From Candidatus Iainarchaeum sp. (GTDB lineage: Archaea > Iainarchaeota > Iainarchaeia > Iainarchaeales > 0-14-0-20-34-12): a stretch of DNA of 64,000 bases. How positions within the stretch are numbered: position 1 is the first letter of the stretch; every line of letters begins with the position of its first letter. Positions 45,079 through 62,064 of the stretch are shown here, piece by piece. The notes under the pieces are model-generated. The model had not been told where the DNA came from and searched no databases. It saw only the letters and a list, made by a program, of their open reading frames with translations. The stretch lies in NCBI GenBank assembly GCA_030649345.1, contig JAUSKK010000038.1, positions 15,192 through 79,191 on the forward strand, written 5' to 3'. A program made the translations under genes and the position numbers.

Positions 45079-45324
45079 ATGAAAGGCAGTGTGATTACTA
45101 TTGCAATTAGCAAAGAGAGTGAGAAATTGTTGAGAACATTGGCCAGTGAAGAATTTGGCCATGAAAAAGGTGCATTGGGTAAAACAGTAAGTATGGCTAT
45201 TCATTCTTTGATGGAAAAGAAAAAAAGAAAAATTGCTTCGGATGCACTTTTGGCTGATATGGCAAAAGGTTTTCATGGCGGTGGATTTAATGGGTGGAAA
45301 AATCGAAATGAAATTTACGACTAA
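45079..45324 (+). CDS. Putative antitoxin (VapB-like) of the downstream PIN toxin
   Basis: 81-aa ORF overlapping the PIN gene start by 17 nt. Preceded by a TATA-like tttatatat. Confidence 0.45.
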   Translation: MKGSVITIAISKESEKLLRTLASEEFGHEKGALGKTVSMAIHSLMEKKKRKIASDALLADMAKGFHGGGFNGWKNRNEIYD

Positions 45325-45742
45325 AGTTTTGTTAGATACCAATATTTTGATATATGCTTACGAACAAGATAACCTGGTAAAATGTTCAATTGCCCGCAAG
45401 TGTATTGAAGAAATATCCAGCACAAATGAAATGATTTTATCTATTCAAAATTTGGCTGAGTTTTCCCGGGTTGCTAAAGAAAAACTTAAAAGTCCTCTTT
45501 CTTCTTCTGAAATAAAGTCTCATTTAAAGATCTTTGAAAAAAGTTTTACAATTATTTATTATTCGTCCAGTTCTATTGAAGTTGCGCTTGAACTCGTGGA
45601 CAAGTACGGAATCCATTTTTTTGATGCTTTATTAACTGCAACGATGAAAGAAAATGGAATTAACACAATCTTAACTGAAAATGAAAAAGATTTTAACAAA
45701 ATTCCTTGGCTGAACGTAGTTAATCCGTTTAAGCGTGCATAG
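45308..45742 (+). CDS. vapC: VapC-like PIN-domain toxin
   Basis: N-terminus MKFTTKVLLDTNILIYAYEQD and downstream acidic residues (FFDALL). Start at ATG 45308. Confidence 0.65.
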   Translation: MKFTTKVLLDTNILIYAYEQDNLVKCSIARKCIEEISSTNEMILSIQNLAEFSRVAKEKLKSPLSSSEIKSHLKIFEKSFTIIYYSSSSIEVALELVDKYGIHFFDALLTATMKENGINTILTENEKDFNKIPWLNVVNPFKRA

Positions 45743-47065: not shown

Positions 47066-47647
47066 TTGTTGGATCTTATGGTTTTGAATAAATTTTATGA
47101 CCGCTATGTAATGACTAACAATCTCAACTACAAGAACAATAATTTTTATTTATTAAAAACTCCGTTTGTAATGCTGCCAGTTGAATTATTGGGCGCCATG
47201 CTTAGAAACGAAGAAGCTCCGTACGTTCAGTCTTTGTATTATTGGGTGAAACATTCTACGTTTAATAATTTAACCAAAGAATTTTTGACTGGAAGTGATT
47301 TGAATTCTAAAAAGGTTTTGGATTTTTTTGAAACTTATTTTTCGGCTTCTGGTTTTGGTTTATTGCAGAATGTGGATTTAGATTTAGAACACAAGCATGC
47401 CATTGTTGTTTTAGTCAATAATCCCTTGCAAGGCAGATTAAATTTTGTTTCCCAGCTGCCTTTGGATCATTTTATGCGCGGAGTCTTAGCTGGATTATTT
47501 TCTAAATCTTTGAATTCAAATGTAGACTGTTTAGAAACTCAATGTTCTGTGTTTAACAAATTTAATGCCTGCAGGTTTGTAATTAAGCCTTTGAATGAAT
47601 TTGATTTTCAAAATCCTGAAGTTCGAAGACAAATATTTATTCAGTAA
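47066..47647 (+). CDS. Hypothetical protein
   Basis: 193-aa ORF with no recognisable motif. Confidence 0.4.
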   Translation: MLDLMVLNKFYDRYVMTNNLNYKNNNFYLLKTPFVMLPVELLGAMLRNEEAPYVQSLYYWVKHSTFNNLTKEFLTGSDLNSKKVLDFFETYFSASGFGLLQNVDLDLEHKHAIVVLVNNPLQGRLNFVSQLPLDHFMRGVLAGLFSKSLNSNVDCLETQCSVFNKFNACRFVIKPLNEFDFQNPEVRRQIFIQ

Positions 47648-47814: not shown

Positions 47815-48330
47815 GTGAATTTGCGGATAGTGTTAGCACTTTTTGTAGCTTTTATTGTTGCTGCCGGAATTTATCTTTATTCACCTAATTTTACTGGTTT
47901 GGTTGGATTAAGTGCTGTGAATTCAAGTGTTTCAATTCCAGAAGATCAGCCTTTAACAAATGCGCAAGTTCAAACTGTTGTGCAGCAATATCTTGCTGAA
48001 AATCCAATGCGTGCAAGTTATTTAAATTCTAAAGCACAAAGTAAATTGAATTCTGTTTTGCAAGAAAATCCTGGAATGACTAAAGAAGCTGTAACTGAAT
48101 TAATGAATACTTTTACTCGTTCACCGGAAGAAGAACAGCAAATGCTGCAAGAAATTGAACGCAATATGGCTGGAGTTGAAACTGTTGCAACCGGCGGGTA
48201 TGAAGAAAATTTTATTTTTGGCGGAAGAACTTTTACTGAAACTGAATTAAAGAATATGACTCCAGAACAACAACAAGCATTTATTGAAGAATATGGTTTG
48301 CCAAATGGTTCGGAGGCGTATTCGAAATGA
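47815..48330 (+). CDS. Small secreted or membrane-anchored protein; first gene of the giant-protein operon
   Basis: 171 aa with an N-terminal TM/signal (IVLALFVAFIVAAGIYLY). Overlaps the next gene by 4 nt. Confidence 0.45.
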   Translation: MNLRIVLALFVAFIVAAGIYLYSPNFTGLVGLSAVNSSVSIPEDQPLTNAQVQTVVQQYLAENPMRASYLNSKAQSKLNSVLQENPGMTKEAVTELMNTFTRSPEEEQQMLQEIERNMAGVETVATGGYEENFIFGGRTFTETELKNMTPEQQQAFIEEYGLPNGSEAYSK

Positions 48331-49775
48331 AATTGCCGGCATTATTTTTTGCAGCAATTTTTTTCTTAACAATTTTTTCAATAAATGTATTTGCTATTTG
48401 GCCTTGGGATGAATGTGCTAATCCATCGGGCGGAACATTTACTGCGCCAGGTTCTGCAACTCAAAATGTTCACTGGTTTTATGATTCAGATGATTGGGCA
48501 AGTGCCTATATTCCTTCTTCAGGGAATTATGTGTTTTATTTGAGCGGGCCTAGCGGGCAAGACTTTGATTTGCAGCTATATTATTCCTGTGGTGGATCTC
48601 CGTTTCGGAGTTCCGCAGGCAGTACGGCAACAGAATCTATTACTAACTACATATCTGGTGGTACAACTGTTCATATGCGTGTAATTGCATTTGGGAGCAG
48701 CAGCGGTAATTGGACTATGGGTGCCTATAAATCGTGTACTGCCAATACCAATTGGTGGTGTTCAAGCGGAGATGTGTATTGGTATGATTCTTGTGGAACC
48801 CGTGGATCTCTGAAACAAGATTGTACTGCCAGTCAAACTTGTTCTGTGGATGTTTGTGTGAATACTTGTACTTCTCATACTTCGTCTAGTTGTTCCAACG
48901 GTGATGTGTATTGGTATAATTCTTGCGGTACTCGAGAAGATTTAAGGCAAGATTGTTCGAGTTCTCAAATTTGTTCTGGCAATACTTGCCAAAATGTTGC
49001 CTGCTTTAATGATTCACAGTGTCCAAGTGATACTTTTGTTTCGAATACGCAAAGATGTTCTGCGTCCAGTGATGTAGAAGCTGTTTGGAGAAATTACTCG
49101 TGTGTCAATCCTGGAACAACTAGTTCGTCTTGTTCGTATGGTGAAGCCTATCAATTGTATGATAATTGCACATCTACTGAATATTGTAATTCCAGTACTA
49201 AAACTTGTCAATCATTTGCCTGTACTTCTAATTCAAGCTGCGGAACCAATGCATATACTGGAAGCACGTTTTGTTCCAATAATGATGTTTACAAAAATAA
49301 TGTAACCTATACTTGCAGTAATCCAAATACTTCGAGTTCTTCGTGTTCAAATTCAACCCAAGCAATTTTACAGCAAGACTGCGGTAATAATTCTACTACA
49401 ACTTCCAATCGCAGATGTTCTGGTTCAGAAATTTTAGTAGACCAAACTGCAACTTTGCGCGGCTGTTCAACTGGAGCCTGTTATTCTTCAACTGGTTCAA
49501 TTACTACTACAACAGAAACTGATTGCAGTAATTTGAATTATTATGGAAGCACTGAATATTATTGTTCCAGTGATAATACGCAGAAAAGAAGCCGGCAATT
49601 GTATACTGGATTTTATTGCAATTCCAGTACAATTAGTTGTGCTCAAGGCAGTTCCTCGTATGTAAATGACCAATTGCTTGAAACCTGTGTATATGGTTGT
49701 TCAAGTGGATCATGCATTACTGCCAGACCCAATTTAGTGATTAGCAGTTCAGATATAACAATTGAGAAAACCTAA
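48327..49775 (+). CDS. Secreted Cys-rich repeat protein
   Basis: 482 aa with a signal peptide. Repeated modules CSxGDVYWY[DN]SCGTRxxL[KR]QDCxxSQxCS, with at least two near-identical copies and several degenerate ones. Ends 10 nt before the giant gene. Confidence 0.55.
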   Translation: MKLPALFFAAIFFLTIFSINVFAIWPWDECANPSGGTFTAPGSATQNVHWFYDSDDWASAYIPSSGNYVFYLSGPSGQDFDLQLYYSCGGSPFRSSAGSTATESITNYISGGTTVHMRVIAFGSSSGNWTMGAYKSCTANTNWWCSSGDVYWYDSCGTRGSLKQDCTASQTCSVDVCVNTCTSHTSSSCSNGDVYWYNSCGTREDLRQDCSSSQICSGNTCQNVACFNDSQCPSDTFVSNTQRCSASSDVEAVWRNYSCVNPGTTSSSCSYGEAYQLYDNCTSTEYCNSSTKTCQSFACTSNSSCGTNAYTGSTFCSNNDVYKNNVTYTCSNPNTSSSSCSNSTQAILQQDCGNNSTTTSNRRCSGSEILVDQTATLRGCSTGACYSSTGSITTTTETDCSNLNYYGSTEYYCSSDNTQKRSRQLYTGFYCNSSTISCAQGSSSYVNDQLLETCVYGCSSGSCITARPNLVISSSDITIEKT

Positions 49776-49785
49776 GGTGTAAAAA

Positions 49786-52700
49786 ATGTTGAATGAAAAA
49801 GCTAGAACACAATTGACTTTGGCATTGCTTTTGTTAGTTGTAACTGGCGTTTCGTATTCTGTGTATGCTCCGCCGGGTGACAATGGAAATGCTCAGGATA
49901 ATTTAAAAGATACTGATTTAATTTTTTCAACTGAAGAATTAAGTTCTTTGGAATTAAAACAGCAAGCTTTGCCTTATTTGAATTCTTTACTGAACACTGC
50001 AATTGAAGACGATCGCGCAAAATTACTGGAAGCCAGAGATGCTGTTGAAGCTAGTTTGAATTCAAATTACTGGAAACGTTCCGGTGTTTTAGTTGTAGAC
50101 AATCAAGTTTTTGAATTAAGTCAAACTGCAGCCAATCGAATTAAGACTTTATATAATCGTGAAAGTTCTGATTTGAATTCTGAACAATTATTGCTGGCAA
50201 TATCGCGCATAGTTCAAGCAGATCAGCAAGCAGCTGAATATACTTTGTTTTCTTTGCAGGAAATTTTTCCTCAATTAACAGATGAAAATTTGATTGCAAC
50301 TATTCAGCCCATGCTTTCCAGTGCAGAAAATGCCTACGATCAAGCATTGCATCAGTTAAGTATTGGAAATTCGCCGAATGCAATTGTACACTTTCAAGAA
50401 TCTTGGGATAATAGTTATCGTGCTGTTTTGTTGACTGATGAATTTACTATTCCGGAAGTAATCATTACAGAACCTTTGGCTGGCTGGTATACTCGTTTGG
50501 CCAGTATTTTGGTTTCAGGTACTCTTTGGGATGTTCAATTGGAAACCATTCCAAGTGTTGTGGTTGCAGTGAATGATTTGAATTATGTTTTCCCGCAATC
50601 CAATGGATTGTTTTCTGGAATTATTTCTTTAACTGAAGGAAGCAATGCAATTGTAGTTTACGGAATTGACCAATATCAAAATATTGGAACTGCAGAAACT
50701 CAGGTAACTTTGGATACTATAGCTCCAGAAATTTTTGTAGCCGGTGTAGAAAATAATTCATTTAATCCAGTTTCTGTTACTCCGGTAATTGAGTTTTCAG
50801 ATTTGCATTTAAATGAAACCAGAATTGAATTAAACAATCAAATATTTATTTCAGGAACTGAAGTCTTAGAAGAAAAAGAATATTCTTTGGTTGTTTATGC
50901 TAATGATTTGGCTGGAAATGAACAAACTCAGACTGTAAACTTTGTAATTGATCGCACAGTTCCAGAAATTGCTTTAATCAATCCCTACAATGGTCAGTTT
51001 GTGCACAATACACTAAATGTTCAAGGTACTGTGAGCGATACTTATTTAGATTACTATATATGGAAGATTGACGGAGTTGAAGTTGCACGCAATCAATCAA
51101 ATTATTCTTGGAATACTCAAAATTTTGAAGACGGAGAGCATACAGTAACTTTATTTGCAATTGATAATGCAGGAAACTCCAGTGAAACAACTGCTGCTGT
51201 TACAGTCGATAATACTTTGCCTGTGATTGAAGTTTCCGGCGTTTCAGACAATGAATTTTATAACTCTAACATTACTCCAGTAATTTTAGTTACTGAATTG
51301 AATTTAGAAATTCAGTTGTTTACTTTGAATGATTTAGAATTTGTTTCAGGCACAGAAGTCAGTGCAGAAAATGAATACGATTTGAATGTAACTGTAATTG
51401 ATAAAGCAGGAAATCGTGCTGACCAAATAGTTTCATTTACGATTGACAAGACTGCTCCATTTGCTCAAATTGTAAATCCTTTGGAAAATTCCTTTGTGCA
51501 TGAAATTGTTTCAATTCAAACTTTTGCAAGTGATTTGTATTTGGATACTCAAACTTTATTTTTGGATGGAACAGAAGTTTCTTCGAACAATTCTTTTGAA
51601 TGGAATACTTTAGATTATTCTGACGGCGAACATAGTATTGATTGGGTTGTAATAGATCAAGCAGGGAATTCTACAACAAGCAGTGTTTTGGTTACTGTAG
51701 ACAATACACTTCCTGTTGTTTTGGTTTCAGGAATTCAAGAAAATGTTTTTTATAATTCAGATCGTGTTCCCTTGGTTGAAGTTCAAGATGTAAATCCAGA
51801 TCAATTGAATGTATTTTTGAATACTCAGCCTTTTGAATTAAGTAATTCCATTTCTTCAGATAACGAATATTCTTTTACTGCAATTGCTGTGGATCGTGCT
51901 GGAAATATTGGGCAGACTACTGTAAACTTTGTTTTGGATAAAACTGTTCCAGTAGTGGAAATTGTTTCTCCTGTAGAAAATTCTTTTTTGCGCCAAACTG
52001 TTGGAATCGAAGGACTTACAGAAGACAAGTATTTGAGTACAGTTGAATTATTGGTGGATGGAACTCTAGTTTCAAATAATTCTTTTTTTGAATGGAATAC
52101 TTTGAACTATTCAGAAGGCTTGCATTCCATTGAATTAATTGCTTTAGATTTAGCTGGCAATCAATCTAGTCAAACAATTCAAGTGACTGTAGATAATGTT
52201 TTGCCGGAATTGTTGGTTCAAAATTTAACTGAAAATGGTTTGTATTTGAATTCTGATTTTACTCCCAAATTTGAATTAACTGAAACTAACCCTAGTGTAA
52301 CCAGTTCTTTGTTGAATGATTTAGAATACAATTTGGAAACTGTAAGTGTAGATGGAGATTATGTTTTGGAAATTACTCACACAGACTTAGCTGGAAACTC
52401 CAATTCTTTGACTCGTACATTTGTAATGGATCAAACTTATCCAGTAACTTCAATTGATTCTCCAACTTCTGGTTCGTTTGTTCGCGGTATTGTTTTAGTT
52501 CAAGCTCAAGCCAGTGACTTGCATTTGAGCCTAACTCAACTATTGATTGACAATGTTTTGGTTTCTTCTGAAAATGAATTCGAATGGAATACTTTAAATT
52601 ACGCTGAGGGTGCTCATAAAGTTGAATGGATTGCTTTAGATTTAGCTGGAAATCAAACCAACAGTGTTTCGTATATTGTAGTAGATAATACTGTTCCAGT

Positions 52701-55700
52701 GATTGCTATTGTTGGAGTAACTGAAGGAACTTTTTATAATTCGAATCAAACTCCATTGGTTGTAGTTCATGAAACCAATCCTAAATTAACTCAAGCATTT
52801 TTGAATAACGAGCTCTTTGAATTAGATTCAACTATTGTTGAAGAAGGCGAATATACTTTAGAAGTTCAAACAGAAGACTTAGCTGGAAATACTGCTGTTC
52901 AATCTGTTTCGTTTGTAATTGACAAAACTGCGCCTGTAACTTCCATTGATTCTCCAAGTTCTGGTTCGTTTGTTTCAGGCAATGTTTCAATTACTGCCAG
53001 TGCCAGTGACTTGTATTCTTTAACTCATACTTTGTCTATAGATGGCCAAGTTTTGACTGAAAATAATTTTATGACTTGGAATACTTTGAATTATTCTGAT
53101 GGCTTTCATGCAATTGAATGGCATGTGCAAGATTTAGCAGGAAATGAAACCAATTTGACCTATGCTGTTACTGTTGACAACACAGTTCCAGTAATTGAAT
53201 TTTTGAATTTAGAAGAAGGAACTTATTACAATCAGTTTTTGGTTCCAGAAGTTAAAATTACTGAAACTAATTTAGATTCAGTGCAGTATTTCTTAAACAA
53301 TCAATCTTATATTCCTGGAACTGTAATTCAAGAAAATAAAGAATATGTTTTAGAAGTTCAAGCTTTGGATTTAGCCGGCAATCAATCGATTGAAAGTGTT
53401 TCATTTATTGTAGATACTTTAGCTCCAGTTGTGGAATTAAGTGTTCCGAGTGCCAGTAGTTTTGTTCGCGGGGTAGTGGAAATTTCGGGTTCAGTTTCTG
53501 ATTTGTATTTGGATTCAACCAATTTATTAATTGACAATTCTTGGGTTACTTCTGATTTACCATTTAACTGGAATACTTTAGATTATTCAGATGGAAATCA
53601 TGTAGTTACTTTTACTGGAACTGATTTGGCTGGAAACTCAACTACAGTTTCTGAAATCTTTACTGTAGATAATACTGTTCCAGTGTTTGTTTATGTTTTG
53701 CCGAATCAACCGTATACTCGCTGGGATGTATTGGTTGATTTTGTTTTAACTGAAATCAATAAAGGTGTTACTGAAGCTTTTTTGAATAATGAATCTTTTG
53801 ATTGGCGTTCAGTAATTTCAGCTGAAGGAGATTACAATTTAGTTTTACGTCATACAGATAAAGCTGGAAATATTGCAGAAGTTTTGCGTACATTTACAAT
53901 TGATAAAACCAAGCCTTGGGCTGAAATTTTAAGTCCAGAAAATAATTCGTTTGTTAAAGGAATTGTTCGCGTTTCTGCAGATGCGAATGACTTGCATGGT
54001 ATTGTGTACCGTTTGGATGTAGATCAACGTGTTTTAACTACTGGCAAATCCATTGACTGGAATACTTTTGTTGAAGGCGATGGCTTGCATGTTTTGAAAT
54101 GGTTTGTAATTGATGTCGCAGCCAATGATATTTTAGTTGAACATACTGTTACTGTAGACAATACTTTGCCTGAAATTCGTTTCACCAATATTCAAAACGG
54201 AATACACTACAATTCTTCAATTATTCCTGAAATTGAAATTGTGGAATTAAATTTGCAGAGCGTACATTATTTTTTGAACAATCAACCGTATGTTTTAGGT
54301 ACTCCAATTTCTCAAGATAATGACTATGTTTTGGAAATTCAGGTTACAGATAATGCTGGAAATTATGTTACGCGATTTATTAATTTTGTGATTGACACTA
54401 CTGCGCCTGAAACAGTGTTAACTGTTCCAAACACAAATGATTTTGTAAAAGGCATGGTTTCAGTTACTGGTGAAACTTCAGATTTGTATTTAGACACCAC
54501 TACTTTGTATATTGACAGTTTGCCAGTTGCGTATAGTTTTCCGTTTGAATGGAATACTGTAAATTATTCAGACGGAACACATACTGTAAGTTATACGGCT
54601 GTAGATTTGGCTGGCAATTCAACTACTGTAAGTACAACAGTTAATGTGGACAATACTTTGCCGGCTGTAACCTATGTTACTCCAATTGTAAATTCGTATG
54701 TTCGCCAAACAGTTGAAATTAATGCAACAATTGTTGAAACAAATTTGGAATTATTGGAATTATTAATTGACACTGAATTGATTAGTAATTCTTTGCCGTT
54801 TGAATTAAATACTTTAAATTATTCAGATGGAGAACATCAATTGTCTGTAACTTTAACAGACCAAGCTGGCAATTATTATAGAACGGATTGGACTGTATTT
54901 GTAGACAATACTGTTCCTGAATCGACTGTTTCTGAATTAATCGAGAATCCTACTTTGGTTGAACCTTTTTATTCTTTAACTGGAACTATTTTAGACTCAA
55001 GTAGTATTGAATATGTTCTAGTAAATGATCAAATGGTTTCTGTATTGGATGGAGATTTTTCATTTGATTTTAATGTAATCGAAGGTCGAAATACAATTAC
55101 TGTAACTGCAGTTGATTTAGCTGGCAATCAAGTTGTTTTCTTGAAAGAAAGATTGGTAGACAAAGATTTGTTGCCTGATTTTTATGAATTATCTGTCTTG
55201 CAGTCTGATCCGTTGAATTCAGATTCTGATTTTGGAACAACTGAAGCTGATGAATCAAATAACGAAATTTTGGATGATGCTGAAGATTTAGACCAAGATG
55301 GTTTGCCTACATTTGCAGAATATTTTTATGGCTCTAATCCATTTTCAGATAATTCGGACGCAGATTCTTTGGATGATTTCTTTGAGTTAACTATGTCAGG
55401 CACTGATCCAGGAATTGCTGACTCAGATGAAGATGGCGTCTTAGATTCTGATGAAGACTTTGATGGAGATAGTTTAACGAATGCACAAGAAGAACAACTG
55501 CATGCCAATCCATACTTATTGGATACTGATTCAGATGGCTTAGATGATTCTGTTGAATCTAGTTTAGGCACAAATCCAATTGAAGTGGATTCAGATCATG
55601 ATGGTTTATTGGATGAAAGTGAAATTTATTTGGAAAGCAATCCTTTGGTGTCAGATTCAGATAATGATGGTGTCTTAGATTCGTTGGAATATTATTCACA

Positions 55701-58464
55701 GACTTTTTCAGACTTGAATGGAATTTTGCAAGTTACTATTGAAGGTCAAGGAGACTTGCGATACACTACTCAAGTTGTAGAAACACCTGAACCACATGCA
55801 GCATTGTTGGAATTACCGGATATTGTTACAGGCTACTATGATATCTCTACGGATTCAAATTTTTTATCTGCTGTAGTGCGTTTGCATTATGCTGAAAGTG
55901 ACTTGAATGGTTTGTTGGAATCTGAAATTCGATTATTTTACTACGATGAAGACTTGAATATTCTTGTAGAAGAATCCGTGCAAGGAGTGAATGAATCTGA
56001 AAATTATGTTTGGGCTCAAACTACCCACTTTAGTTATCGTGCTGCTGGTTCCAGTAAAAATTGGAAAAGTCCAACCAGTTATCCTTGGAATCGCGATCCA
56101 ATTGTTTATTCTTCTGGAGAAACTTTGCGTTTGAAAGCCCGCGTTTATAATATTGGAATTGCTCCAGCTTCAAATGTTCCTGTGAGTTTTTATTCTGGAG
56201 ATCCAAGTTCTGGTGGTGTTTTACTTGGAACAGTTACTGTAAATAATATTCCTTCTGGTGGAAATGCTGAAGCAATTTTGACTTGGGTTGCCAGTTTGGA
56301 TGTAGATTTCTTGTATGTTGTAGTGGATGCAGGCAATGTTATTGCAGAAGAATCTGAAACCGATAATAAAGCATTCCGTCAGTTTATCACAGAATTTAAC
56401 GGCGATTCTGATGGTGATGGTTTAAGTGATTATGAAGAAATTAATGGAATGCGAACACAATTCAGTAATTTATTTATTAAGACAGATCCTTACGAAGAAG
56501 ATACTGATGGCGATGGCTTAACTGATAATGTTGAAATGAATTTGGGTGGAGGAACTAATGCAAATCAACAGTATCTTACTAAAAGTAATCCATCTAAATT
56601 GGATTCGGATAATGATGGTTTAACGGATTACGAAGAACTTGCTGGCCGGCAATTACGAATTACAAACAATCACTCAGATGCAGTTGCTTTATTGTCTGAT
56701 TTGGAATTTGGAAATAGTTTAAGTGATAATGTGGACACTGGCACAGTTTATTCTGATGCATACATGGTTGACACCGATGCAGATGGGTTAACAGATTATC
56801 GCGAATTTGAATGGGGTTCAAACCCCCGCTGGGTTGACTCAGATAGTGATGGACTAAAAGATGGTGTTGACGATGACCCTTCAATGTATGATGTTACTCC
56901 TCCAAGCGTGCAAATTGTTTCAGTTTATCAAGATGAATGGTTTGGATACAAAATTAAATATGTTGTGACTGCTACAGATTCATCTGGAATAATTGCTCAT
57001 TGGATAATTCATGATGGCATACAAGTTGATTTTGCAACTTATGCTAATCGAAAAAATCCTGTGACTATTTCAGGTACCTTGGATGTCAGCTGGTTAAGTG
57101 AAAGTTTTACTGGCACTGTGGCTAACGTAAAAGTGGAGGATTATTCCGGTAACCAATTGATTAAAGACTTGTATTCTCAAGATGGTGTTGTCACTTCAGC
57201 CGCTGTTGCTGCTGTGAAAGAAATTAATCGATTGTATTCTCAAGTGGATCCTTTTAGTGGGGGAATACAATCTGGAATTGCAATTAGTTTAATCCATCAA
57301 GGAGAAGATATTGTAGGCATAGTTAAAAATCCAGGCAGTATTTTGGATGGTATTCGTGGTTTAGGCACTGCAGTAGATGAGCAAGGTATTGGTGTGGTTT
57401 CTACTTTATATAATTCATTTAAGCAACGCATTGATGAATCGCATAATTCTTTGAATCCATTTAAATCCAGTGACTGGAGATATTCTTCTTATCAAGGTGG
57501 TTTTTACACTGGTTATGTGGGTGGCTTAATTATTACTTCCGTGGTAGGCGCTGGTGTTGTATCCAAAGGATTGAGTGTCATTAAAGCTGGAAGTTTAGTT
57601 TCTAAAATTTCAAAAATTAGCATTGTAAAGAGCGCGCTGAGTATTGTAAAACAAACTCCACGAATGAAACTGTTATTGGGCGCAGCCGGAACTGTAGCTG
57701 CTACCTATTGGTTGAAAGAACAGTTCCCTGATATTGATGCATTGCAAACTTTGTCCGATTACCAAATAGGTTTTGCCACCATGGCATTAACTGCTGAAGC
57801 AGGTCCTGCCTTGGGTCGCATTGCAGGAGTTACAGCAGCTCAACAAAAACGCTTAGTTGTATTTCTTTCCCGAAATTCTAAATTTACTGTAGAAAATCGT
57901 GTGGCTTTCTTAAAGCCAGCATCAATTGACAACGGCGTAGCTAAAATATTCAGTGACTTGTCTGATGACTTACAGGATAATATTTTTATAGCATCTCACG
58001 GACAAGGCATTCCTTCATTGGAACGTAGTGTAATTGTTTCTCGCACAAATCGATTGAAAAATGTCCCCGGAGTTGACGATGTTGTAAGGAATCTTAATAA
58101 ACGTAATTGGCATGGTCATTATTTTGAATTAGATGCCGCGGATACTTTGCGAACGCGGGGTCATAATTTAATTGAATTATCTAAAAAATACCCTTTTGGT
58201 GACGGTGAACTGGATGTGTATTTCCAGCACTTAAATGGAAAGAAAATTGTTGCTGAAATAAAATCTATTCCGGCTGATAAATGGCTTACAAATAAAGGAA
58301 ACTTAGATCCGCGTATTGATCGACAATTGGATAGATATGCGCGACTTGTACAAACTGGCGATGCTCAAGAAGCATGGGTTATTTCAGAAAACACTATTTC
58401 TCCTGCTGCCAGAACGCTTATTGAAAACAAAGGAATTATTATAAAATATATTGGAGAGATTTAA
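49786..58464 (+). CDS. Giant (2892 aa) secreted surface protein. Tandem Ig-like repeat units and Ca-binding DxDxDG (thrombospondin-type-3-like) repeats precede a C-terminal PD-(D/E)xK nuclease-like domain. Candidate polymorphic toxin / contact-dependent effector.
   Basis: N-terminal signal/TM. About nine ~163-aa repeats starting VTVDNT[LV]PV and containing WNTL[ND]YSDGxH. Two blocks of D-S-D-x-D-G-[LV]-x-D repeats. C-terminal ~190 aa carry HGHYFELDAAD…GDGELDVYFQ…GKKIVAEIKS (D…ExK). A hydrophobic stretch precedes the C-terminal domain. Confidence 0.7.
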   Translation: MLNEKARTQLTLALLLLVVTGVSYSVYAPPGDNGNAQDNLKDTDLIFSTEELSSLELKQQALPYLNSLLNTAIEDDRAKLLEARDAVEASLNSNYWKRSGVLVVDNQVFELSQTAANRIKTLYNRESSDLNSEQLLLAISRIVQADQQAAEYTLFSLQEIFPQLTDENLIATIQPMLSSAENAYDQALHQLSIGNSPNAIVHFQESWDNSYRAVLLTDEFTIPEVIITEPLAGWYTRLASILVSGTLWDVQLETIPSVVVAVNDLNYVFPQSNGLFSGIISLTEGSNAIVVYGIDQYQNIGTAETQVTLDTIAPEIFVAGVENNSFNPVSVTPVIEFSDLHLNETRIELNNQIFISGTEVLEEKEYSLVVYANDLAGNEQTQTVNFVIDRTVPEIALINPYNGQFVHNTLNVQGTVSDTYLDYYIWKIDGVEVARNQSNYSWNTQNFEDGEHTVTLFAIDNAGNSSETTAAVTVDNTLPVIEVSGVSDNEFYNSNITPVILVTELNLEIQLFTLNDLEFVSGTEVSAENEYDLNVTVIDKAGNRADQIVSFTIDKTAPFAQIVNPLENSFVHEIVSIQTFASDLYLDTQTLFLDGTEVSSNNSFEWNTLDYSDGEHSIDWVVIDQAGNSTTSSVLVTVDNTLPVVLVSGIQENVFYNSDRVPLVEVQDVNPDQLNVFLNTQPFELSNSISSDNEYSFTAIAVDRAGNIGQTTVNFVLDKTVPVVEIVSPVENSFLRQTVGIEGLTEDKYLSTVELLVDGTLVSNNSFFEWNTLNYSEGLHSIELIALDLAGNQSSQTIQVTVDNVLPELLVQNLTENGLYLNSDFTPKFELTETNPSVTSSLLNDLEYNLETVSVDGDYVLEITHTDLAGNSNSLTRTFVMDQTYPVTSIDSPTSGSFVRGIVLVQAQASDLHLSLTQLLIDNVLVSSENEFEWNTLNYAEGAHKVEWIALDLAGNQTNSVSYIVVDNTVPVIAIVGVTEGTFYNSNQTPLVVVHETNPKLTQAFLNNELFELDSTIVEEGEYTLEVQTEDLAGNTAVQSVSFVIDKTAPVTSIDSPSSGSFVSGNVSITASASDLYSLTHTLSIDGQVLTENNFMTWNTLNYSDGFHAIEWHVQDLAGNETNLTYAVTVDNTVPVIEFLNLEEGTYYNQFLVPEVKITETNLDSVQYFLNNQSYIPGTVIQENKEYVLEVQALDLAGNQSIESVSFIVDTLAPVVELSVPSASSFVRGVVEISGSVSDLYLDSTNLLIDNSWVTSDLPFNWNTLDYSDGNHVVTFTGTDLAGNSTTVSEIFTVDNTVPVFVYVLPNQPYTRWDVLVDFVLTEINKGVTEAFLNNESFDWRSVISAEGDYNLVLRHTDKAGNIAEVLRTFTIDKTKPWAEILSPENNSFVKGIVRVSADANDLHGIVYRLDVDQRVLTTGKSIDWNTFVEGDGLHVLKWFVIDVAANDILVEHTVTVDNTLPEIRFTNIQNGIHYNSSIIPEIEIVELNLQSVHYFLNNQPYVLGTPISQDNDYVLEIQVTDNAGNYVTRFINFVIDTTAPETVLTVPNTNDFVKGMVSVTGETSDLYLDTTTLYIDSLPVAYSFPFEWNTVNYSDGTHTVSYTAVDLAGNSTTVSTTVNVDNTLPAVTYVTPIVNSYVRQTVEINATIVETNLELLELLIDTELISNSLPFELNTLNYSDGEHQLSVTLTDQAGNYYRTDWTVFVDNTVPESTVSELIENPTLVEPFYSLTGTILDSSSIEYVLVNDQMVSVLDGDFSFDFNVIEGRNTITVTAVDLAGNQVVFLKERLVDKDLLPDFYELSVLQSDPLNSDSDFGTTEADESNNEILDDAEDLDQDGLPTFAEYFYGSNPFSDNSDADSLDDFFELTMSGTDPGIADSDEDGVLDSDEDFDGDSLTNAQEEQLHANPYLLDTDSDGLDDSVESSLGTNPIEVDSDHDGLLDESEIYLESNPLVSDSDNDGVLDSLEYYSQTFSDLNGILQVTIEGQGDLRYTTQVVETPEPHAALLELPDIVTGYYDISTDSNFLSAVVRLHYAESDLNGLLESEIRLFYYDEDLNILVEESVQGVNESENYVWAQTTHFSYRAAGSSKNWKSPTSYPWNRDPIVYSSGETLRLKARVYNIGIAPASNVPVSFYSGDPSSGGVLLGTVTVNNIPSGGNAEAILTWVASLDVDFLYVVVDAGNVIAEESETDNKAFRQFITEFNGDSDGDGLSDYEEINGMRTQFSNLFIKTDPYEEDTDGDGLTDNVEMNLGGGTNANQQYLTKSNPSKLDSDNDGLTDYEELAGRQLRITNNHSDAVALLSDLEFGNSLSDNVDTGTVYSDAYMVDTDADGLTDYREFEWGSNPRWVDSDSDGLKDGVDDDPSMYDVTPPSVQIVSVYQDEWFGYKIKYVVTATDSSGIIAHWIIHDGIQVDFATYANRKNPVTISGTLDVSWLSESFTGTVANVKVEDYSGNQLIKDLYSQDGVVTSAAVAAVKEINRLYSQVDPFSGGIQSGIAISLIHQGEDIVGIVKNPGSILDGIRGLGTAVDEQGIGVVSTLYNSFKQRIDESHNSLNPFKSSDWRYSSYQGGFYTGYVGGLIITSVVGAGVVSKGLSVIKAGSLVSKISKISIVKSALSIVKQTPRMKLLLGAAGTVAATYWLKEQFPDIDALQTLSDYQIGFATMALTAEAGPALGRIAGVTAAQQKRLVVFLSRNSKFTVENRVAFLKPASIDNGVAKIFSDLSDDLQDNIFIASHGQGIPSLERSVIVSRTNRLKNVPGVDDVVRNLNKRNWHGHYFELDAADTLRTRGHNLIELSKKYPFGDGELDVYFQHLNGKKIVAEIKSIPADKWLTNKGNLDPRIDRQLDRYARLVQTGDAQEAWVISENTISPAARTLIENKGIIIKYIGEI
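50700..54950 (+). repeat. Nucleotide-level tandem repeats (about 490-bp period, about 9 copies) encoding the Ig-like repeat units of the giant gene
   Basis: The periodic recurrence of gtagacaatac[tg]… / tggaatact… segments mirrors the protein repeats. Confidence 0.55.
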
Positions 58465-58466
58465 TT

Positions 58467-59099
58467 GTGTCTTCTGGTTTTGTTGCACAGTTTTATGTCT
58501 CTGGAAATTTATCTTCTGAAATTATTTCCACTAAATTATTAAAAGTAGCACAAGTCCTACAAGAAAGTGGATTTACGCTTGAAAAAGAAAAATCTTTAGA
58601 ATATACTTTTTACTGTAAAGAAAACAGTTATTTTATGGAATTGTTTTTGTTTCAAGCTAATTCAGTGGATTCATTTAAGGTAATTGAATTATCAGCTACT
58701 TTAAGTTCACATCTTTCCCTGCAATTTTGGAATAAACTTATTGATGTAGTTATCAAAGTATATAGTGTTATTCAACCAGAATTTGGATTGGGTGACGCGG
58801 AAGAGTTTTTTAATGATTTTAGACATCCTAAAACTGAATTAGGCTGGCTTACTTTCTTTAACTCAAAACAAGTTCATTCACTGGGTGAACAAAAGTTTTC
58901 TCAAATTCCGGTGTGGAAATCAGGAGAATACGAATTGAAATTCGGAGAATACTTTGACAAAGTGTCTGCCGGCAAAATGCAGTTGTTACCTGTCTGGAAA
59001 TGCGAAAAATTATCCGATGGAAGTTATCTTTTGGTATTGACTGAACAATTTGAAGGCTATCCTTCTCTAAAAGAGCTGAAACAACATTTAGGGTTGTGA
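58467..59099 (+). CDS. Candidate immunity protein for the upstream C-terminal toxin domain
   Basis: 210-aa ORF starting with GTG 2 nt after the giant gene's stop. No signal peptide. The call rests on position only. Confidence 0.4.
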   Translation: MSSGFVAQFYVSGNLSSEIISTKLLKVAQVLQESGFTLEKEKSLEYTFYCKENSYFMELFLFQANSVDSFKVIELSATLSSHLSLQFWNKLIDVVIKVYSVIQPEFGLGDAEEFFNDFRHPKTELGWLTFFNSKQVHSLGEQKFSQIPVWKSGEYELKFGEYFDKVSAGKMQLLPVWKCEKLSDGSYLLVLTEQFEGYPSLKELKQHLGL

Positions 59100-59101
59100 A
59101 C

Positions 59102-59362
59102 TTATTTGTAGCTTTTGTACCAGCGTTCGTATTCTTTGTGCGTTTCAAAGCAATGCAGTATGTAAATGATTTCTTTTTCGATATAGTAAATAATTCTTGC
59201 TTGTTTTGTGACATTTTCTGTGAAATAAGGCAAGCCATGATTCAAGTGTTTGCTAACTGGATTGTCGGCAATTTTTTCAATATGTTTTCCAAATTGTTTG
59301 TTTAAAGGATTGGGTATTTTTTCAAGTTCTTTTTCAGCAGTTTCAAGAATTTGTATTTCCAT
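59102..59362 (-). CDS. RelE/ParE-family toxin
   Basis: MEIQILETAEKELEKIP…ARIIYYIEKEIIYILHCFETHKEYE resembles the RelE/ParE fold signature (RIIY…I.IL…H). Start set at the internal Met. Overlaps the antitoxin gene by a few nt. Confidence 0.55.
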   Translation of the reverse strand: MEIQILETAEKELEKIPNPLNKQFGKHIEKIADNPVSKHLNHGLPYFTENVTKQARIIYYIEKEIIYILHCFETHKEYERWYKSYK

Positions 59363-59363
59363 T

Positions 59364-59600
59364 TTACCACTTGAACTTTTTCTTGATTTCATTAAAAGAC
59401 TTTGTTTTGATATTGCCTGCTTTCACTTCATCCATTTCTATTCGGATGCCTTTGGCAACCAGTTCTTTTTCTTCTTCATCCAGTATGCGTTCGTAAGCCA
59501 ATAATGCCTGCCGAATTACTTCGGTTTGACTTCCAGCATATCCTTTTTCAATTGCTTTTTTTACAATAGTTTCATAAGGAATTCCCAAATTTACGTTCAT
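59364..59600 (-). CDS. ParD/RHH-type antitoxin
   Basis: 78 aa. GYAGSQTEVIRQALLAYERILDEEE is typical of ParD/CopG-like antitoxins. Directly upstream of the RelE/ParE-like gene. Confidence 0.55.
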   Translation of the reverse strand: MNVNLGIPYETIVKKAIEKGYAGSQTEVIRQALLAYERILDEEEKELVAKGIRIEMDEVKAGNIKTKSFNEIKKKFKW

Positions 59601-59772: not shown

Positions 59773-59994
59773 TTGATTGTTATGAACTTTAAGGTAATTT
59801 TAGAGAAAGGTGAAGATGGTTTTTTTGTAGTGACTGTTCCTGCTTTGCCTGGTTGTATTTCTCAAGGTGAAACTGAAAAAGAAGCTTTGGATAATATTAA
59901 GGAAGCCATTGAATTGCATGTTTCTTCTTTGGCTGAAGATGGAATTCCGATTTCTCAGAAACAAGTTGTGAAGGAAGTTGCTGTAAGGTTATAG
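59773..59994 (+). CDS. hicB: HicB-family antitoxin
   Basis: 73 aa. FKVILEKGEDGFFVVTVPALPGCISQGETEKEALDNIKEAIELH is the UPF0150/HicB RNase-H-like fold signature. Confidence 0.6.
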   Translation: MIVMNFKVILEKGEDGFFVVTVPALPGCISQGETEKEALDNIKEAIELHVSSLAEDGIPISQKQVVKEVAVRL

Positions 59995-60032
59995 AATGTC
60001 TAAGCTTCCGATTATTTCCGCAAACGAAACGC

Positions 60033-60257
60033 TTGTTTCGTTGCGCATTAAAACGTGTTCGTTTTAATTGCGGAAAAGATTTATTGAAAATTTTATTAAA
60101 AAAAGGTTATTATATTCGAAACCAGAAAGGAAGTCATGTTCATTTGCGTCATTCTTTTTTGTTGCCTGTGACTGTTCCCAATCATAAAGTAATTGCACTA
60201 GGTACACTTAAAGCTATAATGAAAACTACTGGTTTAACTGAAAAAGATTTTGAGTAA
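60033..60257 (+). CDS. hicA: HicA-family mRNA-interferase toxin (start uncertain: TTG 60033 or TTG 60084)
   Basis: LLKILLKKGYYIRNQKGSHVHLRH…VTVPNHKVIALGTLKAIMKTTGL matches the HicA/YcfA signature (KGSH…H…VP.H). Confidence 0.55.
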   Translation: MFRCALKRVRFNCGKDLLKILLKKGYYIRNQKGSHVHLRHSFLLPVTVPNHKVIALGTLKAIMKTTGLTEKDFE

Positions 60258-60707: not shown

Positions 60708-61481
60708 ATGTATTTTATGGCTAGTGACCGAACACAAACAGGTATTGAAGGCTTGGATAAAGCATTAAATGGAGGCATTCCTTCAGGAAATTTAGTCTTA
60801 TTGTCGGGTGGAGCTGGAACTGGTAAGAGTACCTTATGCTTGCAGTACTGCATTAATGGTTGTGTAAAATTTAATGAGAAAGCTTTGTTTATTTCAACAG
60901 AGCAAACGCCCACTGAATTACTAAGACAGGCTGCTCAATACAATTGGCCTTTGACTGATTTGATTAACAAAGGCAAACTCAAGATAGAATACTTTGATGT
61001 TACCAAAGGCGACGAGTTCTTGAAACGAATCGATGAAAGCATTGATCACTTTAAACCCAACAGAATTGCTTTAGATTCTTTAACCACATTAGCCGATGCT
61101 TTATTAATTTCAGACATGTCAGAAGAAACTGCTTTTAGTATGGTTCAAATTGCCGAAAGCGTAAACCCTATTCCAAGAACTGAACAAATAATTACAAAAA
61201 CACTATTATACAGATTAATTGGAGCACTCAAAAAATATCATGTTACAACTTTACTCACAAGCGAATTGCCGGAAGAAGGAAAAACACTAAGCGCAGATGG
61301 AGTAAGTGAGTTTATTACGGATGGAGTAATTTTATTAAGTTATTTGAGTGTTGGTGCAACTGAATTAAGAGTTCTTAAAATAAGAAAAATGAGATATTCT
61401 GTTCACACTAAAGAATATCTGACTTATGATTTTTCATCCAAAGGGCTTGAATGCAAACTTGAAGAACAGTTAAGTATTTAG
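60708..61481 (+). CDS. KaiC/RadA-like single-domain RecA-superfamily ATPase
   Basis: 257 aa. Walker A GGAGTGKSTLCLQY preceded by GLDKALNGGIPSGNLVLLSG, and a Walker B-like region (RIALDSLT). Confidence 0.7.
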   Translation: MYFMASDRTQTGIEGLDKALNGGIPSGNLVLLSGGAGTGKSTLCLQYCINGCVKFNEKALFISTEQTPTELLRQAAQYNWPLTDLINKGKLKIEYFDVTKGDEFLKRIDESIDHFKPNRIALDSLTTLADALLISDMSEETAFSMVQIAESVNPIPRTEQIITKTLLYRLIGALKKYHVTTLLTSELPEEGKTLSADGVSEFITDGVILLSYLSVGATELRVLKIRKMRYSVHTKEYLTYDFSSKGLECKLEEQLSI

Positions 61482-61494
61482 TTATTGATTTCTA

Positions 61495-62064
61495 ATGTGG
61501 GATACTGTTGCCAAACTTTTAATGCACAAACAAATTTCCTTTGAAAAAGGTAAAATAGAAATATTTGGTCGGCTTTCATCACTGTTGCCATCAGATTCGT
61601 TTGTGACTCTACAAATGGAACTTGAGACACGTGGACTTCAAAACTTAATATATTTTAAAGCAAAAGAATCAGGCGCAAAATGGTTTGTTGAAATGAATAA
61701 ATATTATCATTTGAAAGGAATGGATGTAATTAAATGGGGGTCTGAAATAGTTACATTTGCCGGTTGGGGTGAAGCAATAATTGTAAGACGAGATGATTCA
61801 AAAAAAGAAATTGTATTTAATTTAAAAAATTCAATAACTGCAAAATTACACCCAGCCTCAGTAGTGCCAGTTGATCATTTATTTCGAGGCTTACTTTGTG
61901 GTGCAATGGCCACAATTTATGATATTGAATTATCTAAAATTGACGCAGTTGAAACTAAGTGTATTGCGATGGGTAGTCCAATCTGTGAATTTATTGTCAA
62001 ACAAACTAGCGAATTTGATGTTAATAATGATTTAGTTAAAGCTCAGCTAACTCCGGTAATGTAA
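61495..62064 (+). CDS. V4R (4-vinyl reductase)-domain protein
   Basis: 189 aa. The C-terminal CGAMATIYD…CIAMGSPICEF matches the V4R Cys-containing signature. Confidence 0.5.
   Translation: MWDTVAKLLMHKQISFEKGKIEIFGRLSSLLPSDSFVTLQMELETRGLQNLIYFKAKESGAKWFVEMNKYYHLKGMDVIKWGSEIVTFAGWGEAIIVRRDDSKKEIVFNLKNSITAKLHPASVVPVDHLFRGLLCGAMATIYDIELSKIDAVETKCIAMGSPICEFIVKQTSEFDVNNDLVKAQLTPVM

Follow-up and report, generated by a model that had tools for sequence, protein, structure and literature searches.

A giant surface protein of a Candidatus Iainarchaeum genome ends in a predicted PD-(D/E)xK nuclease domain with a dedicated downstream partner: a probable toxin-immunity pair

Introduction

What would a nuclease-like domain do at the far end of a giant surface protein, and does the small gene that follows it encode its inhibitor? 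The question is raised by a 64,000-nucleotide stretch of a Candidatus Iainarchaeum genome (assembly GCA_030649345.1, contig JAUSKK010000038.1, positions 15,192 to 79,191 of the forward strand), which is referred to as the window throughout and in which the gene of a 2892-residue secreted protein is followed almost immediately by an open reading frame (ORF) of 210 amino acids (aa). A first-pass annotation, made from the DNA letters alone, had read the two genes as a candidate polymorphic toxin and its immunity gene in a DPANN-type archaeon. The two ORFs and the 2-nt gap between them lie exactly where that annotation had placed them, and the assignment to DPANN was right, the 210-aa product being 100% identical to a protein of a metagenome-assembled genome (MAG) labeled 'Candidatus Diapherotrites archaeon'. 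The two genes are:

49786..58464, plus strand: gene of the giant secreted surface protein with the C-terminal nuclease domain (ATG start, 2892 aa; from the ORF list, Pfam and composition)
58467..59099, plus strand: partner gene, whose product is predicted to be the cognate immunity protein or an inhibitor (210 aa from a GTG start, isoelectric point (pI) 5.3, without a signal peptide, motif GW(L/I)(T/N)FF)

Polymorphic toxin systems have been studied in depth in bacteria. For archaea, computational work has predicted such systems, some with PD-DExK nucleases among their C-terminal toxin domains (PMC6393860), and those of Makarova et al. 2019 were reported to be experimentally uncharacterised (PMC8416519); most immunity superfamilies, on the other side of such pairs, were reported absent from archaea (PMC3482391). 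The analysis below leads us to conclude that the two genes of the locus probably form an effector-immunity module of the polymorphic-toxin kind, in which an exported DNase would target the DNA of another cell and a cytoplasmic inhibitor would hold it in check.

A nuclease fold at the C-terminus

The last 195 residues of the giant protein, termed here the C-terminal domain (CT), gave sub-threshold matches to three Pfam families of one and the same clan, namely Mrr_cat (E=1.5e-3), NA-iREase1 (E=2.8e-3) and NucS (E=0.064), of which the best, Mrr_cat, scored 19 bits against a gathering cut-off of 21. An AlphaFold2 model of the CT, for which the small alignment of its family served as input, had a predicted local distance difference test (pLDDT) score of 83.7 and a predicted template-modelling (pTM) score of 0.79, and was confident over the last ~135 residues. 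Two parts can be told apart in it:

57877..58062, plus strand: helical linker, residues 2698-2759 (AlphaFold2 secondary structure, pLDDT 53-69)
58063..58461, plus strand: PD-(D/E)xK nuclease core, the predicted toxin domain, residues 2760-2892 (E2781, D2810, E2824-x-K2826, and E2862/W2864 on beta4)

The order of elements in the model is alpha-beta-beta-beta-alpha-beta-alpha-beta, in which the canonical alpha-beta-beta-beta-alpha-beta core is present, and the key residues occupy the canonical positions: E2781 on alpha1 (within HYFELD), D2810 on beta2 (within GELDVYF) and E2824-x-K2826 on beta3 (within AEIKS). In an alignment of eight CT sequences, E2781, D2810, E2824, E2862 and W2864 are invariant, and K2826 is kept in seven of the eight. 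The D-(x)n-E-x-K arrangement recognized in the first-pass annotation is therefore correct, its residues being both conserved in the homologues and seated on the expected elements of a confidently predicted structure, and one of the refuting outcomes named in that annotation, a lack of these residues in homologues, was not what the alignment showed; relying on that model, the last ~135 residues of the giant can confidently be assigned a PD-(D/E)xK nuclease fold. Structurally, NucS and Mrr-like proteins are the nearer neighbours of the model, and TseT, a bacterial effector to which we return below, is more distant.

At the level of sequence, the family stands apart. No Tox-REase family of Pfam was matched at E<=1 by any of the eight CT members, nor at E<=10 by their consensus, so the CT sequence family is not a curated one; likewise, sequence searches of the PDB with the single CT and with profiles of the CT and partner families returned only chance-level matches. 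The earlier suggestion that the toxin and immunity families may be new accords with this result, since both lie below every Pfam threshold. To recover homologues, the representatives of 1.84 billion 50%-identity clusters were searched exhaustively with HMMER at E<=1e-3, and eight proteins were returned, comprising the window's own, six real relatives, and one low-complexity repeat protein (P0008) that was rejected as a spurious match. The eighth member of the family, the C-terminus of a giant protein of locus L004, was taken from the fetched DNA of that locus. The family thus has ~8 known members in total, and one of the loci is assigned to another Diapherotrites genome. A word-index protein search found no match with the CT alone and just two known members with the CT-family profile; as the exhaustive search recovered members that the word-index search had missed, these negatives are weak and do not signify orphan status. 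In a scan of a genome collection, only the Candidatus Iainarchaeum andersonii locus was found. Two scans of viral contigs gave no match, and hence no link of the cassette to a virus. PADLOC matched neither the CT nor the partner, and gave one weak match, with no stretch attached, for a single homologue.

A dedicated partner gene downstream

The GTG start of the partner gene (58467), which is backed by the alignment of partner sequences, lies 2 nt past the TAA stop codon of the giant gene (58462-58464). By composition, the partner is acidic (pI 5.3 vs ~8 for the nuclease), and it has no hydrophobic N-terminus. Among 5.8 billion clusters, a word-index search returned as its sole match the protein itself, recorded as a hypothetical protein of a Candidatus Diapherotrites MAG. 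The neighborhoods of the CT relatives were more informative, and the cassettes that could be read outside the window are as follows:

Locus L002, Ca. Iainarchaeum andersonii contig AQRS01000032: P0009, a secreted giant of 1564 aa; downstream gene of 210 aa
Hainich groundwater contigs L003/L007: P0003, 413 aa; downstream gene of 209 aa
L004/L005, first cassette: a giant of 1685 aa, with a body 47% identical to that of P0009; downstream gene of 240 aa
L004/L005, second cassette: P0005, 273 aa; downstream gene of 234 aa
L006: P0007, 210 aa; downstream gene of 236 aa

With the window, these make six readable cassettes (window, L002, L003/L007, L004 with two, and L006) at five independent loci, and in all six a partner homologue stands directly 3' of the CT gene, at a distance of -4 to +2 nt. 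All of these downstream proteins belong to one family, in which GW(L/I)(T/N)FF is conserved, and the Iainarchaeum protein is 35% identical to the window ORF across the conserved core (pairwise E=2e-10). Outside this count, a gene of at least 216 aa begins at the stop codon of P0004. Locus L010 was excluded because its contig has a coverage of 1 and is frameshifted; it holds a 93-aa downstream fragment with no match to the partner profile. When metagenomes were scanned for the partner motif, it was found beside CT genes only, at the known Hainich loci. Judged from its sequence and placement, the downstream ORF is a dedicated and rare partner of the CT; a housekeeping protein in this position, which would have spoken against the toxin proposal, is not what was found.

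Resemblance to immunity proteins was suggested by a structure model of the partner. Its best full-length structural matches are PA0821/TsiV and the Imm52 chain from PA3907-PA3908, while other matches at similar Z span only a subdomain of ~85 residues; Foldseek independently ranked PA0821 first (E=1.3e-3, TM-score 0.45). Just two weak Pfam matches were obtained with the consensus of the partner hidden Markov model, one of which is PF11876, 'TsiV, type VI immunity for VRR-NUC' (E=0.14), and this match spans exactly the conserved motif. None of the six partner members matched either TsiV (PF11876) or Imm52 (PF15579) at E<=1, i.e., no membership of these families is seen in sequence. It is to be noted that TsiV3, the DUF3396 immunity protein, likewise has PA0821 as its closest match in structure, that the PD-(D/E)xK effector TseT is counteracted by TsiT (PMC9635880 for both), and that Imm52 is paired with Tox-REase-5 (Zhang et al. 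2012, PMC3482391). Thus, the structure matches, the Foldseek ranking and the PF11876 match, each weak alone, converge on the one immunity class that is known to inhibit toxins of the restriction endonuclease (REase) fold, and the modelled partner is likely homologous to the TsiV/Imm52 immunity proteins. The earlier call of a cognate immunity protein finds support in the resemblance of the model, but not in sequence scores, which remain below the Pfam thresholds.

Modularity and duplication of the cassette

The cassette is found on unrelated carriers. The bodies of the window protein and P0009 have only the CT and TSP3-like motifs in common, and the CT is also carried by short proteins (210-413 aa) that have just a signal peptide or an anchor. 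At L004 3057-6528 (= L005 739-4210), two cassettes are present, one on the giant of 1685 aa and the other on a signal-peptide protein of 273 aa; their CTs are 73% and their partners 66% identical, which indicates a local duplication. At L006, a further CT-type gene begins directly after the partner. No extra or orphan CT/partner cassette was found in the 64-kb window; additional cassettes, for which the first-pass annotation had suggested looking, are present at the related loci L004/L005 and L006. Shuffling onto unrelated bodies and tandem copies are, as far as these sequences go, the habits of toxin-immunity cassettes. No relatives of the body of the window protein were recovered. The sole available pair of giants with homologous bodies, P0009 and the L004 giant, have bodies 47%, pre-CT regions 31% and CTs 39-40% identical, the CTs being of the same family. 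Two other ORFs (232 and 171 aa) separate the L004 cassettes, the 232-aa one having a weak homologue at L006 (E=1.6e-6).

Export signal, repeat body and topology

The remainder of the giant protein was dissected by Pfam, motif counts and hydropathy, with the following result:

49786..49869, plus strand: Sec-type signal peptide with a K/R n-region, a hydrophobic core and ...VYA/PP (translation, Kyte-Doolittle peak 1.96; cleavage inferred)
50461..55155, plus strand: array of Ig-like domains (Big_13/Big_7/Glucodextran_B), ~8-9 units with a 164-aa period (Pfam, motif spacing)
55273..55680, plus strand: first DxDxDG / TSP3-type Ca-binding block, 6 motifs (regular-expression count, Pfam TSP3_bac)
56110..56370, plus strand: CARDB (cell-adhesion-related) domain, residues 2109-2195 (Pfam E=2.2e-9)
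56392..56871, plus strand: second DxDxDG / TSP3-type block, 5 motifs (regular-expression count, Pfam)
57181..57876, plus strand: pre-CT region, residues 2466-2697, rich in glycine and hydrophobic in part, containing the motif ...Y..GF..GY.GG... (hydropathy, three-way alignment)

The protein was not on record in an exact database look-up; it contains no cysteine and has a pI of ~4 by composition. The N-terminal stretch MLNEKARTQLTLALLLLVVTGVSYSVYA is strongly hydrophobic (Kyte-Doolittle 1.96), in agreement with the signal or transmembrane (TM) segment described earlier. Pfam matched Big_13 (E=2e-62, 11 stretches), Big_7, Glucodextran_B, CARDB and TSP3_bac. The motif VDN[TV]xP recurs at residues 474, 638, 802, 966, 1130, 1294, 1457 and 1621, i.e., with a period of 164 aa, and makes up ~8 full units plus an extra copy at residue 1706, which is close to the nine or so units of the first count; the two Ca-binding blocks described there were also recovered, with six D.D.DG motifs within residues 1834-1957 and five within 2207-2351. 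Tandem Repeats Finder detected no repeats at the DNA level in the giant gene, so the Ig-like repeats are old and diverged. The G+C content does not change markedly where body and CT meet. A Logan assembly of SRR13727527 (L001), from the same sample, begins at window position 58399, with 66 nt of the giant gene still to come; since this independent assembly breaks there, the junction is supported by the MAG contig only.

On which side of the membrane the nuclease lies is the main uncertainty of the locus. The pre-CT region, which has no Pfam match, may be a module for membrane interaction or translocation, or a TM anchor; those of the three giants align weakly, with F, G, Y and G invariant. Hydrophobic segments occur at residues 2575-2600, 2627-2643 and 2660-2685, so that the segments quoted in the first-pass annotation are indeed present, but only the first is TM-like, and borderline so, its score of 1.88 being similar to that of a beta-strand segment in the Ig repeats (1.69). 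The hydrophobic segment of the window protein aligns with the charged, non-TM sequence GYTVGYVAEQAVLLGKIAEW in P0009, and conversely, where P0009 and the L004 giant have their hydrophobic patches, the aligned stretch of the window protein is not hydrophobic. All CT members with a complete N-terminus have a strong signal or anchor there (Kyte-Doolittle 1.96-2.55), and in the short ones, namely P0003, P0005 and P0007, no further hydrophobic segment follows, which implies that their nuclease domain is exported; in P0003, the CT and a PKD-like domain lie on one and the same side. Considering that the segment is not conserved in position and that the short members lack any later one, an exported nuclease is favoured for the giant as well, so far as can be predicted from sequence.

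Interpretation and alternatives

The toxin-immunity interpretation is substantially supported by the comparative and structural evidence, while its polymorphic and contact-dependent parts are offered as hypotheses. In the module as we picture it, the giant would leave the cell through Sec and be presented on the surface as a long stalk of Ig-like repeats stiffened by Ca, at the far C-terminal end of which, past the glycine-rich pre-toxin region, a Mg-dependent PD-(D/E)xK DNase would be found. The tightly coupled downstream gene would produce a cytoplasmic acidic protein of TsiV/Imm52-like fold that may bind the nuclease domain and block it, and would thus safeguard producer and kin, not only prior to export but also from incoming copies. 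The nuclease would attack the DNA of a cell that is touched, be it a competitor or a host, or, less probably, free DNA. A more specific proposal is that the system is an archaeal counterpart of contact-dependent inhibition (CDI) that dispenses with a specialised secretion machine: at the tip of the stalk, a translocation module of the glycine-zipper type would be joined by a DNase able to enter the touched cell (a competitor, or the host on which the archaeon feeds), kin being shielded by an immunity protein remotely related to the bacterial TsiV/Imm52 family of the T6SS. We regard this proposal as plausible, although somewhat doubtful; if true, it would imply cross-domain exchange or an ancient origin of the toxin-immunity pair.

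Several observations weigh against the toxin-immunity module. One family member, P0004, is without the catalytic lysine; the model of the partner is of moderate quality (pLDDT 65.7), and the PF11876 match of its consensus is far below threshold (11.9 vs 25 bits). The co-occurrence of CT and partner rests on six cassettes at five independent loci and a family of ~8 members. Among the recovered relatives of either body type, no other CT type was found on a homologous body; the CT of every one of them is of the same family, so that no case of CT replacement is seen, and the polymorphic-toxin label of the first-pass annotation finds its support in the presence of the cassette on unrelated bodies and in tandem copies. 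The analysis identified neither a protease for processing nor a release motif nor machinery for delivery. Lastly, the segment at residues 2581-2599 (Kyte-Doolittle 1.88) could be a real TM helix, and if it does span the membrane, the CT would be cytoplasmic.

This last point opens the way to a different arrangement, modelled on the SPEARE proteins of Nanohaloarchaeota, which are described in an excerpt of PMC6642349 as mostly extracytoplasmic, with a TM near the C-terminus and a cytoplasmic restriction-enzyme region. A TM helix at ~2575-2597 would then place the REase-fold domain in the cytoplasm of the producer, where it would process or degrade DNA that had been taken up from a partner cell under the control of the 210-aa protein as a regulator. 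The borderline segment just before the CT, the precedent within DPANN, and the absence of a signal peptide from the partner fit this arrangement; against it stand the unconserved position of the segment, which is aligned with charged sequence in P0009, the export of the CT in short members that have an N-terminal signal or anchor only, and the lack of type III restriction, serine protease and laminin-G domains in the Pfam analysis of the giant. Moreover, tandem CT-partner cassettes are hard to square with a housekeeping nuclease of uptake, and we consider the arrangement unlikely.

Much the same low probability attaches to a nutritional role, in which a surface-tethered nuclease would digest environmental or host DNA for nucleotide salvage and the partner would be an intracellular inhibitor of the barstar/NuiA type that shields the producer before export only, with no antagonism between cells involved. 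The export signals, the intact catalytic motif and the acidic cytoplasmic partner suit such a role equally well, no delivery apparatus was found, and DPANN archaea are generally dependent on external nucleotides. This particular archaeon, nonetheless, can make AMP and GMP from IMP, since adenylosuccinate synthetase and IMP dehydrogenase are encoded in the window, and the CT family is far too rare for a core function in salvage. A salvage enzyme would also leave unexplained the glycine-rich pre-CT module common to the giants, the duplication of the cassette within loci, its location in variable islands that are rich in toxin-antitoxin (TA) modules or have an integrase, and the fact that the best structural matches of the partner are immunity proteins of contact-dependent effectors. 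The least probable alternative is that the CT is a non-catalytic module for DNA binding or protein interaction and the downstream ORF an unrelated gene that is merely co-transcribed. It draws on the weak Pfam match to NA-iREase1, an inactive REase family, and on P0004, but conflicts with the conservation of the catalytic residues at canonical structural positions as well as with the strict and exclusive pairing of the two genes in every readable cassette.

Comparison with known systems

The closest known counterparts of the predicted toxin-immunity module are the REase-effector/immunity pairs of type VI secretion systems (T6SS), namely TseT (Tox-REase-5)/TsiT (Imm52) of Pseudomonas aeruginosa and TseV (VRR-Nuc)/TsiV (DUF3396, PF11876) of Salmonella bongori. 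In these pairs, too, an REase-fold toxin forms the C-terminus of a delivery protein, and the gene of a cytoplasmic alpha+beta immunity protein lies directly downstream. The window differs in having no PAAR, VgrG or T6SS context, in belonging to an archaeon, in that the carrier is a Sec-exported Ig-repeat adhesin, and in that the sequence similarity of its families is below every curated threshold; in addition, PA0821 has 361 aa, whereas the partner family is much shorter (about 210-240 aa). CdiA-CT/CdiI and Rhs/MafB, with which the locus had been compared in the first-pass annotation, share its overall logic, i.e., a very large exported protein rich in repeats, a short nuclease at its C-terminus, an adjoining immunity gene, and extra cassettes in related loci. 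The likeness is one of analogy, however, as none of the defining domains is present: Pfam analysis of the giant and its neighbors found no FHA/haemagglutinin repeats, CdiB/TpsB partner, VENN motif, YD/Rhs repeats or MafB N-domain. Archaea, furthermore, have no outer membrane, and no exchange of the CT for other toxin types was observed, unlike in CDI.

Of the features by which Zhang et al. 2012 recognize polymorphic toxins, the locus has the N-terminal secretion signal, the long repeat body, a predicted immunity gene directly downstream, and the occurrence of the cassette on different N-terminal bodies. As to the predicted archaeal systems, the family described here was missed by the Pfam Tox-REase and Imm profiles, and the signature DUF4157 protease mentioned in PMC6393860 was not detected. 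SPEARE, as portrayed in the excerpt of PMC6642349, is likewise a giant DPANN surface protein with adhesion domains, a restriction-enzyme-type C-terminus after a hydrophobic segment and a proposed role between cells; its C-terminus, in contrast, is type III restriction-enzyme-like and is described as cytoplasmic, it has serine protease, laminin-G and BC-toxin-like parts of which Pfam found none in the window giant, and that excerpt describes no dedicated downstream partner. Overall, the locus belongs neither to CDI, Rhs, MafB or SPEARE nor to any of the Pfam Tox-REase families or PADLOC defence systems.

Neither of the two sequence families is curated, both are very rare, and they are carried by surface giants of DPANN; the locus, while not categorically new, is unusually testable. 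It offers a compact, clonable pair, consisting of a nuclease domain of ~195 aa and a partner of 210 aa, with clear falsifiable predictions on toxicity, rescue and catalytic mutants, and a few natural variants by which cognate and non-cognate pairs could be compared. If the proposed function is true, this would be the first experimentally tractable nuclease toxin-immunity pair of DPANN, the TsiV/Imm52-type immunity fold would extend to archaea, and a molecular handle would be gained on how ultra-small archaea with giant surface proteins meet other cells.

Genomic setting

The region around the locus looks like an accessory or defence island. Just 3' of the partner gene, at 59102-59600 on the minus strand, are a ParE-like (96 aa, Pfam E=8.6e-4) and a ParD-like gene (78 aa, TIGR02606 E=1.2e-5), followed at 59773-60257 on the plus strand by a HicB (E=1.2e-13) and HicA (E=1.6e-15) pair, and a PIN-domain gene lies upstream at 45233-45742. 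The Iainarchaeum locus is adjoined by an integrase and a PIN_2/RHH pair. Location of both loci in variable regions rich in TA modules or integrases fits an accessory island. Scans of the window for tRNA and Rfam families gave no match, and a sigma-70/terminator scan was at or below the expectation from shuffled sequence, the sigma-70 model being inapplicable to an archaeon.

Immediately upstream of the giant gene, by 10 nt, the plus-strand ORF at 48327-49775 encodes a 482-aa signal-peptide protein that is very rich in Cys, Ser and Thr and is built of repeated ...CS.GDVYWY.SCGTR... units without a Pfam match, next to the cysteine-free giant. It is overlapped by 4 nt by the ORF at 47815-48330 (plus strand), which encodes an N-terminally anchored protein of 171 aa, also without a Pfam match. 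The two were considered as parts of the system and rejected, as the genes found upstream of P0009 are no homologues of theirs. Membrane proteins with an RDD domain, homologous to each other (33% identity, E=6e-13), are encoded downstream of the cassette at L002 (11338-12729) and upstream at L006 (2310-2786), and none in the window; the protein may be an accessory membrane component or its presence a coincidence. At L002 12722-16695, after the Iainarchaeum cassette and the RDD gene, comes a giant of 2260 aa with Peptidase_S8 and a faint CARDB match, and this subtilase beside a toxin-bearing giant could be a processing protease. Farther out in the window, a KaiC-like ATPase (257 aa) and a V4R-domain protein (189 aa) are encoded in succession at 60708-62064, and another V4R protein is encoded upstream at 47066-47647.

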